Origin: Escherichia coli
GTDB taxonomy: Bacteria > Pseudomonadota > Gammaproteobacteria > Enterobacterales > Enterobacteriaceae
Direction: 5' to 3' (one strand)
Assembly: GCF_003790525.1 (NCBI RefSeq)
Contig: NZ_CP033635.1
Length of the DNA: 64,000 nt
How positions within the stretch are numbered: position 1 is the stretch's first letter; each line of letters opens with the position of its first letter. The notes below the pieces were generated by a model. It was not told where the DNA came from and searched no databases. It was given only the letters and a program-made list of their open reading frames with translations. This document shows, piece by piece, positions 9,436 to 15,517 of this stretch. Position numbers and translations under genes: made by a program.

Positions 9436-9855
9436 TTAAAGAGATTCGTTCAGCCAGCTATCAAACGGCGCTTTCGGTACTGCGCCATTAAGCATGTCGA
9501 CAACCTGACCGTTTTTGAAAATCATGATCGTCGGTATACTACGAATTCCAAAGCGACTGCTTAATTCACGTTCAGCTTCGGTATTCACTTTCACAAAGCG
9601 CACTTTACCGCTACGCTCTTGCGCGACATCTTCAAAAATTGGTGCGAAATTACGGCAGGGGCCGCACCACGGTGCCCAGAAGTCGATCACCACAGGTAGA
9701 TCATCTTTCAGCAATTTGTCGAGCGTTTCACCGGTCGCATTAATCACCTCTCCGTCAAACAAGTCGTGACCGCAGCGTCCGCATTTTGCCGCATCTTCGA
9801 TCCGATCGTCGGGAATGCGATTGATGGCCTGACAATGGGTACAAACGGTATTCAT
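9436..9855 (-). CDS. trxC: thioredoxin 2
   Basis: 139-aa ORF with N-terminal zinc-finger cysteines (CTHCQ...CGRCGH) and thioredoxin active site WAPWCGPCR. Confidence 0.95.
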
Positions 9856-10061
9856 AACTAACCTCGGGATGAGTAAGGAGACTTATCGGCAACGACGCCG
9901 GTATGTTTCTAATATGTTACATATTATCGGGGACATTGTTCCAGACAACAATCTGTTTTATTCAATGGGTATGATAGACACAGGCTTTGGAACGAAATCA
10001 TGGCGAACCGCGCGGACTTCGGGTAATCTGCGCGCTTCGCGCAGCGCTGGTGGAGAAAAGC

Positions 10062-11099
10062 ATGAACGATGAAATGAAAGGTAAAAGCGGCAAGGTCAAA
10101 GTGATGTATGTCCGCAGTGATGATGATTCTGATAAACGTACCCACAACCCGCGTACCGGGAAAGGGGGCGGGCGTCCAGGAAAATCTCGTGCTGACGGTG
10201 GCCGTCGCCCCGCCCGCGATGACAAACAGAGTCAGCCCCGTGACCGCAAGTGGGAAGATTCGCCGTGGCGCACGGTTTCCCGCGCGCCGGGTGATGAGAC
10301 GCCGGAAAAGGCCGATCACGGTGGCATCAGTGGTAAAAGTTTTATTGATCCGGAAGTTTTGCGTCGTCAGCGTGCGGAAGAAACCCGCGTCTACGGAGAA
10401 AACGCCTGTCAGGCACTGTTCCAGAGCCGTCCGGAAGCGATTGTTCGCGCCTGGTTTATCCAGAGCGTAACGCCACGTTTTAAAGAAGCCTTGCGCTGGA
10501 TGGCGGCAAACCGCAAAGCGTACCATGTGGTGGATGAAGCGGAACTGACAAAAGCGTCAGGCACGGAACATCACGGCGGCGTTTGCTTCCTGATCAAAAA
10601 GCGTAACGGTACAACCGTGCAGCAGTGGGTAAGCCAGGCTGGCGCGCAGGATTGTGTACTGGCCCTGGAAAACGAATCTAACCCGCATAACCTGGGCGGC
10701 ATGATGCGTAGCTGTGCGCACTTCGGCGTGAAAGGTGTTGTGGTGCAGGATGCAGCACTGCTGGAGTCTGGGGCGGCTATCCGTACCGCAGAAGGCGGCG
10801 CAGAGCACGTTCAGCCGATTACTGGCGACAACATTGTTAACGTGCTGGATGATTTCCGTCAGGCGGGTTACACCGTAGTGACAACTTCCAGCGAGCAGGG
10901 TAAACCGCTGTTCAAAACCAGTCTGCCAGCGAAAATGGTACTGGTGCTGGGTCAGGAATATGAAGGGTTACCGGATGCCGCACGCGATCCGAACGATCTG
11001 CGCGTGAAGATTGATGGTACTGGCAACGTTGCCGGGCTGAATATCTCTGTCGCAACCGGCGTTCTTCTTGGCGAATGGTGGCGTCAGAATAAAGCCTGA
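10062..11099 (+). CDS. yfiF: SpoU/TrmH-family RNA 2'-O-methyltransferase (putative) with basic low-complexity N-terminal extension
   Basis: 345 aa from the Met at [14 protein letters not shown]... (ORF-track ORF starts 25 codons earlier at 9987); C-terminal SpoU-type methyltransferase region (...[16 protein letters not shown]...[18 protein letters not shown]). Confidence 0.88.
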
Positions 11100-14182: not shown

Positions 14183-15517
14183 TTACTCTTCTGTCGTTTG
14201 CGGTGGCACGCCCGTTCCGCTCGGTTTACGGCGCTTACCAATATTTTTGGTGTCGCGATGGCGTTTTTTCACCCGCGGCTTCTCTTTCTCTTTAGCTTTT
14301 TTCTTCTCGGCGCGTTTTGCCAGTACTTTCTTCGATGGCTTGCCGGTCTGCTTCTCGCTTGGCGCACGCGTTTTCGGGCGTAACTCGTCAATTACGCGAG
14401 CTTTAATTGGCTCTTCAATATAGCGACCAACTTTGCCCAGCAGCAGATGGTCATGGGCTTCCACCAGCGAAATCGCGGTGCCTTTACGACCGGCGCGCGC
14501 GGTACGTCCGATACGGTGCAAATAAGTATCGCCACTGCGCGGCATATCGAAGTTAAAGACGTGGCTGACGTCAGGAATGTCGATACCGCGCGCGGCAACA
14601 TCGGTTGCAACCAGTACGTTTACGCGACCTTCGGTCAAACGCTTGATCGCTTCGTTACGCTTGCCCTGTACCATCTCACCTTCGAGATAGCAGTTGTTGA
14701 TGCCCGCTTCGCGCAGCCAGTTTGCCAGCTCATGCACACGCTCACGCTTACGCACAAACACAATTGAGCGGGTCGCTTCCGGCTGTTTTAACAGGTGCAC
14801 CAGCAATGCGGTTTTATGTTCCAGGTCATCGGCGCGGTAATACCACTGATGAATTTTTTTGCGCTCACGGGTGGACGGATTGGCAGAAACCTCCACCGGA
14901 TCTTCCAGCAGACGCTCGGCAAAGTCCTGAATCGCATCGCCTTCCAGCGTTGCCGAAAAGAGCAGGGTCTGTTTACGCCAGCGCGTTTCGCCAGCAATAT
15001 GTTCGATATCCTGAGCGAAGCCCATATCCAGCATACGGTCTGCTTCGTCGAGGATCAGCGTTTCAACCGCGCGGCAATCGAAGTTCTCTTCTTTTATGTA
15101 TTGCAGCAGACGTCCGGTCGTGGCGACCACGATGTCCTGATTTTCGCTGAACACTTCCGCGTGGTTCATATAGGCCACGCCGCCGGTGATGGTGGCGATA
15201 TCCAGATGCGTATGTTTCGCCAGTTCGCGGGCATGATCGGCCACCTGCATCGCCAGCTCGCGAGTTGGGGTGAGGATCAAAATACGCGGCGGACCGGATT
15301 TCTTACGTGGGAAATCGAGCAGGTGCTGCAACGCTGGCAGCAGATACGCCGCCGTTTTACCGGTGCCTGTCGGCGCAGAACCGAGTACATCACGGCCATC
15401 GAGCGCAGGCGGAATGGCGGCAGCCTGAATGGCGGTCGGGCGAGTGAAACCTTTATCCTGGAGGGCTTCCAGCAGGCTTTCGTCGAGTTCAAGTTCGGAA
15501 AAAGTCGTTACAGTCAT
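14183..15517 (-). CDS. srmB: DEAD-box ATP-dependent RNA helicase
   Basis: 444-aa ORF with Q-motif, Walker [13 protein letters not shown] box ([14 protein letters not shown]), SAT, and a basic C-terminal tail. Confidence 0.95.

Follow-up and report, generated by a model that had tools for sequence, protein, structure and literature searches.

The N-terminal extension of Escherichia coli YfiF is a predicted disordered, modular arm with conserved motifs around a variable spacer

YfiF of Escherichia coli carries, ahead of its folded core, a net-basic arm of ~95 residues that is predicted from its composition and from structure models to be intrinsically disordered. Judging from its pattern of conservation this tail is modular, with conserved short motifs placed around a variable Arg/Asp spacer. 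The existence of the extension has been known since 2007, when a positively charged, presumably disordered segment was described in YfiF, its orthologs and its eukaryotic relatives (Tkaczuk et al., 2007; PMC1829167). What we add is a modest refinement: the modular organization of the tail, three motifs under selection, a near-neutral repeat spacer and a 5' end that is constrained at the nucleotide level. Among the disordered, charged extensions of RNA enzymes, the YfiF tail is an ordinary example and not a surprising one.

The yfiF coding sequence lies on the plus strand of the 64-kb stretch of DNA analysed here (the window), between positions 10062 and 11099, and encodes 345 amino acids plus a stop. 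Its product is an RlmB-paralogous, SpoU-class putative 2'-O-ribose RNA methyltransferase, ~100% identical to E. coli YfiF, and the local gene order (patZ, tapT (yfiP), trxC, yfiF, ung) matches that of E. coli. The NCBIfam equivalog PRK10864 covered the whole protein with 667.6 bits (cutoff 267, model positions 1-344), and residues 1-113 alone scored 157.6 bits against it (model positions 1-112). Of 5426 complete E. coli genomes, 5425 carry the first 339 bp of the gene in a single copy, and positions 10062-10360 correspond to codons 1-100. The RefSeq annotation uses the identical start, the ATG at 10062, which is preceded at a distance of 6 nt by a GGAG Shine-Dalgarno sequence (10052-10055). 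Since N-terminomics in E. coli has recorded a YfiF N-terminal peptide beginning at position 1 (PMC8902505), translation starts where annotated and includes the extension. This peptide and the start methionine, invariant in 85 sequences, both count against the idea that the extension has no function at the protein level, being instead a mis-annotated start, evolutionary junk or a stretch conserved for a 5' DNA or RNA regulatory element; we regard that idea as very improbable.

Downstream of the tail we identified two Pfam domains, an L30e-like SpoU_sub_bind domain at residues 110-181 (10389-10604, plus strand; PF08032, E = 5.7e-15, 55.8 bits, cutoff 22.8) and a SPOUT (SpoU_methylase) catalytic domain at residues 199-336 (10656-11069, plus strand; PF00588, E = 1.1e-31, 110.3 bits, cutoff 29.7). 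SpoU motifs 1 to 3 (N-P-H-N-x-G...R, G-x-E-x-x-G and G...L-N-x-S) are present, and in an alignment of 125 homologues the residues N207, P208, H209, N210, G212, R216, G297, E299, G302, G319, L326 and N327 were invariant or conserved in at least 90%. AF2 modelled the core with pLDDT >93. The best Foldseek match of the model was RlmB (1gz0; E = 1e-20, TM (target) 0.75, ~250 aligned columns), and other L30e-SPOUT rRNA methyltransferases also aligned with the core. Judged by sequence and model together, the core is a SpoU/TrmH-class SPOUT enzyme of the RlmB-like subgroup (COG0566B). The 2007 classification likewise placed YfiF and RlmB in COG0566B and regarded YfiF as having arisen by duplication of RlmB in Gammaproteobacteria, with all 2'-O-methyltransferase residues kept (Tkaczuk et al., 2007; PMC1829167). 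E. coli RlmB (YjfH), which methylates the 2'-O of Gm2251 in 23S rRNA, is the closest solved paralogue (best sequence match E = 2.7e-19 over YfiF residues 108-342). It shares the L30e-like plus SpoU/SPOUT core, begins at the position that matches YfiF residue 108 and lacks an N-terminal extension.

The original prediction, made from the sequence, described a highly charged, K/R/D/G-rich extension of ~100 residues ahead of the SpoU domain. Composition agrees with this, and the Pfam domains start at residue 110. Residues 1-108 contain 13.9% R, 12% D, 12% G and 10.2% K, in sum 48%, with 26 K+R and 20 D+E (net +6), 13 G and 15 hydrophobic residues (14%, vs 75 of 237 in the core). Counted by segment, the charge is +4 in residues 1-18, -4 in 19-24, +9 in 25-52 and about -1 in 53-66. 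We compared the YfiF N-terminus with 13,657 segments of 95 aa taken from the 45 ORFs of at least 200 aa in the window. Its hydrophobic fraction (0.105-0.14) was the lowest (mean 0.35, sd 0.05), and its charged fraction of 0.41 stood ~3 sd above the mean of 0.22 (sd 0.06). Elsewhere in the window a charged fraction of this order (0.46) was seen only at the C-terminal end of SrmB, a DEAD-box helicase acting in assembly, whose gene srmB lies 4 kb from yfiF on the minus strand (14183-15517). A long, charged, hydrophobic-poor terminal tail is common to YfiF and the ribosome-assembly enzymes SrmB, DeaD and RluB, which act on RNA and have theirs at the C-terminus. The tail of SrmB is rich in Lys; that of YfiF is Arg/Asp/Gly-rich, lies at the N-terminus and has conserved motifs. 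Homology between the two was rejected (BLASTP E = 2.2).

The charge-hydropathy plot classed residues 1-108 as disordered (0.310 < 0.433) and the core as folded. AF2 run with the 125-sequence family alignment gave residues 1-95 a pLDDT of 44-55 without secondary structure; run with 85 close orthologues, it gave residues 1-92 a pLDDT of 31-42 (<50), with a sole low-confidence strand at 12-16. A helix at residues 97-106, over which pLDDT rises, leads into the core. The intrinsic disorder that had been suspected from the sequence is thus upheld by prediction, both by charge-hydropathy and by two AF2 runs (pLDDT 31-55), and no confident secondary structure was modelled before residue 97. According to these models, the disordered stretch comprises ~95 residues (1-95; 10062-10346, plus strand) rather than 100-108, and residues 97-108 are already part of the folded domain. 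Pfam and NCBIfam returned no domain on residues 1-108 except the YfiF equivalog PRK10864, a PDB sequence search with residues 1-108 gave 0 matches at E <= 10, and Foldseek aligned no structure to the N-terminus, its matches being confined to the ~250-residue core. Since the tail drew no Pfam, PDB or Foldseek match, no known fold was recognised in it. We also considered an arrangement with the conserved motifs docked on the core, and rejected it: with the 85 orthologues, residues 1-92 still had pLDDT <50.

Next, we studied the conservation of the tail, first in 18 Enterobacteriaceae genera and then in 81 Enterobacteriaceae and Erwiniaceae species from a genome scan, the best 80 loci of which came from these two families only. 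Four conserved blocks and a spacer could be delimited, all on the plus strand. Block N1a (residues 6-24; 10077-10133) combines a strand-prone stretch, in which basic and hydrophobic residues alternate, with the acidic patch SDDDSD behind it. Its residues K8, V12, M15, Y16, V17 and R18 were invariant in 85 sequences, and an HMM found the motif down to ~46% core identity. Block N1b (residues 25-52; 10134-10217) is basic and Arg/Gly-rich and contains a nearly invariant NPRTGKG; its synonymous variation is normal, and therefore the constraint acts at the protein level. After the hypervariable polyampholyte spacer (residues 53-66; 10218-10259) comes the SPW block (residues 67-77; 10260-10292), in which P68 was invariant in two alignments (A3 and A5). 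Block N2b (residues 85-108; 10314-10385), which includes the helix leading to the folded domain, had 21 of 24 residues invariant (alignment A1).

The frequency of the majority residue in the 81 species followed this division. It reached 0.89 in residues 6-38, 0.94 in the SPW block and 0.90 in residues 85-108, values to be compared with 0.84 in the SPOUT domain (199-336), and was 0.69 in residues 39-52, 0.49 in the spacer and 0.46 in the variable residues 78-84 (DETPEKA). Pairwise dN/dS against ten species was 0.04-0.25 for residues 6-52 and 0.02-0.24 for residues 67-108; the corresponding ranges were 0.035-0.17 in the core and 0.2-1.2 in the spacer. The low values in the blocks indicate that about two thirds of the tail are under purifying selection as strong as that on the enzyme; the spacer, on these ratios, appears to evolve almost neutrally. 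In other genera it is 10-46 aa long and made of RD/RE/RKRDD repeats, and in E. cloacae it is encoded by a 15-bp tandem DNA repeat present 3.5 times; we found no tandem repeat in the E. coli spacer. The description of the extension as low-complexity consequently holds for about a third of the region and fails for residues 6-38, 67-77 and 85-108, which are specific, near-invariant motifs under strong purifying selection.

Conservation at the 5' end also extends to the nucleotide level. A conserved block between 10017 and 10124 on the plus strand comprises a 45-nt leader and the synonymously constrained codons 2-21. The 45 nt upstream of the yfiF ATG, GGTAATCTGCGCGCTTCGCGCAGCGCTGGTGGAGAAAAGC, are at least 95% conserved in the 81 species. 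They hold the Shine-Dalgarno sequence and a perfect 7-bp hairpin (CTGCGCG-CTT-CGCGCAG, 10028-10044). Synonymous variation was 0.21 in codons 2-21 vs 0.47 in the rest of the gene (Mann-Whitney p = 4e-7), and for Val codons 0.15 vs 0.62. Because of this low variation, the amino-acid invariance of residues 9-19 may partly be driven by the nucleic acid. Rfam had no family matching the leader and codons 2-21, the MFE of the leader and 5' coding region was no better than that of shuffles (z = 0.56), and RNAalifold gave for the same region a weak local hairpin only, without compensatory changes. A hand-specified structure, combining the leader hairpin with a helix between the Shine-Dalgarno sequence and codons 17-20, gained no support, its pairing and covariation being equal to those of shuffled controls; Pantoea and Mixta are without its 3' arm. 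A sigma-70 promoter scan of positions 9800-10200 found no site. Candidate roles of the conserved 5' block are a promoter/discriminator, a constraint on the initiation of translation and a site at which YfiF binds its own mRNA, to which the protein has been crosslinked (PMC11066096).

The conserved leader, the low synonymous variation of codons 2-21 and the crosslink to the yfiF mRNA could be read in favour of an extension without a function at the protein level, and so could the tails of <40 aa in 45 of the 107 YfiF-like representatives described below. Nevertheless, synonymous variation is normal and dN/dS very low in residues 25-52, 67-77 and 85-108, and distant relatives with different nucleotides still keep KPTVFY- and SPW-type motifs. 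For residues 25-108, the notion of junk or of a mis-annotated start is largely refuted.

To survey the wider family we searched 1.84 billion cluster representatives exhaustively, and 107 full-core relatives were found among the best 150. All 107 were closer to the core of YfiF than to RlmB (median 174 vs 87 bits). An N-terminal extension of 60-368 aa, with a median charged fraction of 0.37, was present in 57 of them and had a net positive charge in 55. Many of these long extensions are tandem repeats of the DRPRF or GGDRGPR type, and one 90%-identity cluster spans lengths of 421, 590 and 617 aa. The statement that typical SpoU/TrmH enzymes lack such an extension needs correcting for this subfamily, in which such tails are nothing exceptional; they had also been described in eukaryotic relatives (PMC1829167). 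Segment HMMs recovered the E. coli-type tail motifs down to ~46-57% core identity, for example in Sodalis and Symbiopectobacterium. Orbales-type proteins have a weaker version, K-P-T-V-F-Y, at the N-terminus, and [ST]PW occurs in 11 of the 57 long extensions, where 0.55 would be expected and 1000 shuffles reached at most 4. The tails of more distant relatives keep the composition and not the sequence. As the motifs fade with distance and the composition stays, composition and net charge are a deep property of the family; the specific E. coli-type motifs appear, from their distribution, to be a family-level elaboration.

In the literature YfiF emerges as an RNA-binding protein. It was recovered as such by OOPS in 2024, iCLIP crosslinked it to rRNA, tRNA and sRNAs, its RNA binding differs between growth phases and a yfiF knockout grows slowly (PMC11066096). 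Since the iCLIP was done with plasmid-expressed YfiF (PMC11066096), the breadth of targets may be inflated. YfiF was also purified together with ribosomal proteins and enzymes that modify rRNA (PMC3384335), and by crosslinking SEC-MS it was enriched with a set comprising RNase E, DeaD, SrmB and RluB (PMC13106914). Its function as an rRNA/tRNA methyltransferase was still only hypothesised in 2024, in a report that does not discuss the tail (PMC11066096), in concordance with the original prediction that the substrate is not firmly established. In the papers searched that mention yfiF or its UniProt accession we found no RNA substrate assigned. A 2021 study by GeZi et al. is cited in PMC11066096 as concerning YfiF and replication timing. 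As far as we know, an enzyme other than YfiF has by now been assigned to every ribose methylation known in the rRNA and tRNA of E. coli. Four of them, unassigned in 2007 and at that time hoped to find their enzyme through the classification, have since been given to RlmM, RsmI and TrmL, and YfiF has thereby been left an orphan.

For the role of the tail, our confidence is about evenly divided on the reading that we favour, in which it is a tethering arm for large structured RNAs on an RlmB-like dimeric SpoU core. Its main target would be the rRNA within intermediates of ribosome assembly, with tRNA or sRNAs as further ones. The Arg/Gly-rich residues 25-52, together with the basic strand-prone motif at 9-18, would capture RNA rapidly by electrostatics; the Trp-containing SPW block and residues 85-108, beside the L30e-like domain, would make specific contacts and become ordered on binding; and the reach would be set by the Arg/Asp spacer, a flexible linker whose variation in length is tolerated. 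The tail would then supply the RNA binding seen with the whole protein, for substrate recruitment or for a role as an assembly factor. This reading is the best supported one: in its favour are the predicted disorder, the translation of the extension, the selection on its blocks, the recurrence of charged, mostly net-positive extensions in homologues, and the RNA binding and ribosomal associations of the whole protein. The likeness of the tail to RNA- and ribosome-binding tails may be taken as a resemblance.

Several observations weigh against such a tether. The L30e-like domain and the groove of the SPOUT dimer could supply all of the RNA binding. Taken over all 108 residues, the tail has little net basic charge, and it includes acidic patches. 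The canonical RGG repeat is absent from the E. coli tail, which contains GGGR and GGRR but no RGG tripeptide; RGG/GGR-rich repeats do occur in the tails of some distant homologues. Tightly conserved motifs that include a Trp are more typical of linear motifs for protein docking than of generic tails that bind RNA, and the conservation of residues 2-21 may in part reflect the nucleotide-level constraint.

A precedent for a tethering arm is found in Trm10, the SPOUT tRNA m1G9 methyltransferase, which has a flexible basic N-extension like the one proposed for YfiF. That extension alone binds tRNA with a Kd of 0.86 uM, contributes to activity and is needed for it (PMC3874184). The YfiF tail shares with extensions of this type its predicted disorder and its net positive charge. 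Trm10, however, is a monomeric base methyltransferase from another clade of the SPOUT enzymes, and its extension is poorly conserved (PMC3874184), whereas three blocks of the YfiF tail are near-invariant across the Enterobacteriaceae. Eukaryotic and mitochondrial relatives are MRM1/Pet56, MRM3 (RNMTL1) and the SpoU-type assembly factors of the trypanosome mitoribosome; fold matches in this group were 7oi6, 6yxy and 9hcd. The N-termini of these mitochondrial proteins include mitochondrial targeting sequences, and we saw in them no sequence similarity to the YfiF tail; YfiF, for its part, keeps all the SpoU motifs. Mitoribosomal SpoU-type enzymes bind assembly intermediates of the large subunit, sometimes in a structural role that is independent of catalysis (PMC7957421).

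Alternatively, the conserved blocks could be short linear motifs that dock YfiF on a protein partner, such as RNase E and the degradosome, a ribosomal protein or an assembly factor, leaving contact with RNA to the folded domains. Near-invariant short motifs in a disordered context, W69 among them, are what such docking would look like; the strand-prone KVKVMYVR could pair with a partner by beta-augmentation, and [ST]PW is ~20-fold enriched over shuffles in the tails of distant homologues. Rne, Rnr, RluC and PhoL are cited in PMC11066096 as physical interactors of YfiF, the enrichment with the RNase E set (PMC13106914) points the same way, and YfiF is among the listed substrates of the PPIase FkpB. 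RNA, however, often bridges the co-purification of RNA-binding proteins, and the E. coli-type motifs are detectable only in Enterobacterales-level relatives, beyond which the sequence of the tail is lost. Docking is the main rival of the tether; we consider it somewhat unlikely, although the Trp-centred motif and the tight conservation fit it at least as well as they fit tethering.

The segregation of charge in this polyampholyte, with the acidic SDDDSD and the Arg/Asp spacer set against basic patches, could also mean that these patches fold back on the RNA-binding groove or on each other and hold activity in check until the right substrate or growth condition lifts the block, so that the tail would be regulatory or autoinhibitory, or that it drives partitioning into RNA-rich condensates. 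The growth-phase dependence of RNA binding (PMC11066096) and the enrichment of YfiF in large particles with RNase E (PMC13106914) would be congruent with either. On the other hand, neither AF2 run docked the tail on the core with confidence, and the acidic spacer, as the least conserved segment and one of such variable length, is hard to square with autoinhibition by a precise fit. Such a regulatory role, like one in condensates, is possible but less supported than the tether or the docking, and in our estimate quite unlikely.

We also considered a more specific proposal, unlikely as it stands, that draws together the motifs and the 5' block. The KVKVMYVR strand, NPRTGKG and SPW would be docking motifs that deliver an orphan SpoU enzyme, possibly in a non-catalytic role, to one particular ribosome-assembly or RNA-decay complex, in place of a generic electrostatic arm, and the Arg/Asp spacer would serve as a ruler whose length can evolve. 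At the same time, the leader hairpin and codons 2-21 would form an autoregulatory operator by which YfiF controls its own translation.

YfiF is among the last E. coli SPOUT enzymes without a known target. If the tail selects the RNA or the particle, as the tethering reading would have it, then the map of constraint obtained here, with residues 6-52, 67-77 and 85-108 constrained and the spacer (53-66) dispensable, would guide the construction of mutants that may reveal the substrate of the enzyme or a non-catalytic role in assembly.

At the nucleotide level, the 5' end of yfiF carries a conserved block on the plus strand (10017-10124), encompassing a 45-nt leader and codons 2-21, which was delineated from conservation in 81 species. 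Within these species, the synonymous heterozygosity of codons 2-21 was 0.21 vs. 0.47 in the remainder of the gene (p = 4e-7), and the leader sequence contains a perfect hairpin located between nucleotides 10028 and 10044. A search of the leader and codons 2-21 against Rfam returned no match, and covariation gave no support for an RNA structure in this segment. The conservation could be caused by a promoter/discriminator, a constraint on translation initiation or an autoregulatory site.

Next to this block, trxC lies upstream of yfiF in the divergent orientation (window 9436-10061) in 79 of the best 80 loci of our genome scan, all from Enterobacteriaceae and Erwiniaceae (L002-L081), with an intergenic distance of ~205 bp. 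In a Dub-seq study (PMC6338753), yfiF-trxC fragments reportedly had a combined, unexplained effect on fitness on potassium acetate. Four kb from yfiF, on the minus strand, lies srmB (14183-15517), encoding a DEAD-box 50S assembly helicase whose Lys-rich C-terminal tail (residues ~337-444) has a charged fraction of 0.46 and is the only other segment within the window comparable in this respect to the YfiF tail; sequence similarity between the two tails was absent (E = 2.2).

The tail also varies among distant homologues. One cluster defined at 90% identity (P0163, with one member named Corallincola sp.) contains proteins of 421, 590 and 617 aa, which implies that its repeat-built N-terminal tail expands and contracts rapidly. 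A separate YfiF-like subgroup (cluster representatives P0177, P0182, P0186, P0209 and P0253) shows a reversed motif order, in which the low-complexity region comes first and is followed by G-S/N-V-K-V-V-V-K and KKTGPLSPRAPEKIKKNRAEE, directly preceding the core; these motifs loosely resemble the KVKVMYVR and 11-residue blocks of E. coli.

Turning to the SpoU motifs, Escherichia, Intestinirhabdus and Kluyvera carry G-L-N in motif 3, while 15 of the 18 orthologues in the Enterobacteriaceae alignment (A1) carry S-L-N (VAGLNISV vs. VESLNVSV; residue 325, window 11034-11036). In the alignment including more distant homologues (A3), the Orbales-type proteins (P0157, P0164, P0175 and P0229), e.g., that of Zophobihabitans entericus, retain the N-terminal K-P-T-V-F-Y and SPW motifs, and FQQ---VN replaces GQEYEGL of motif 2. 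With this replacement, SAM binding or catalysis may have disappeared from these homologues, even though the tail is retained.
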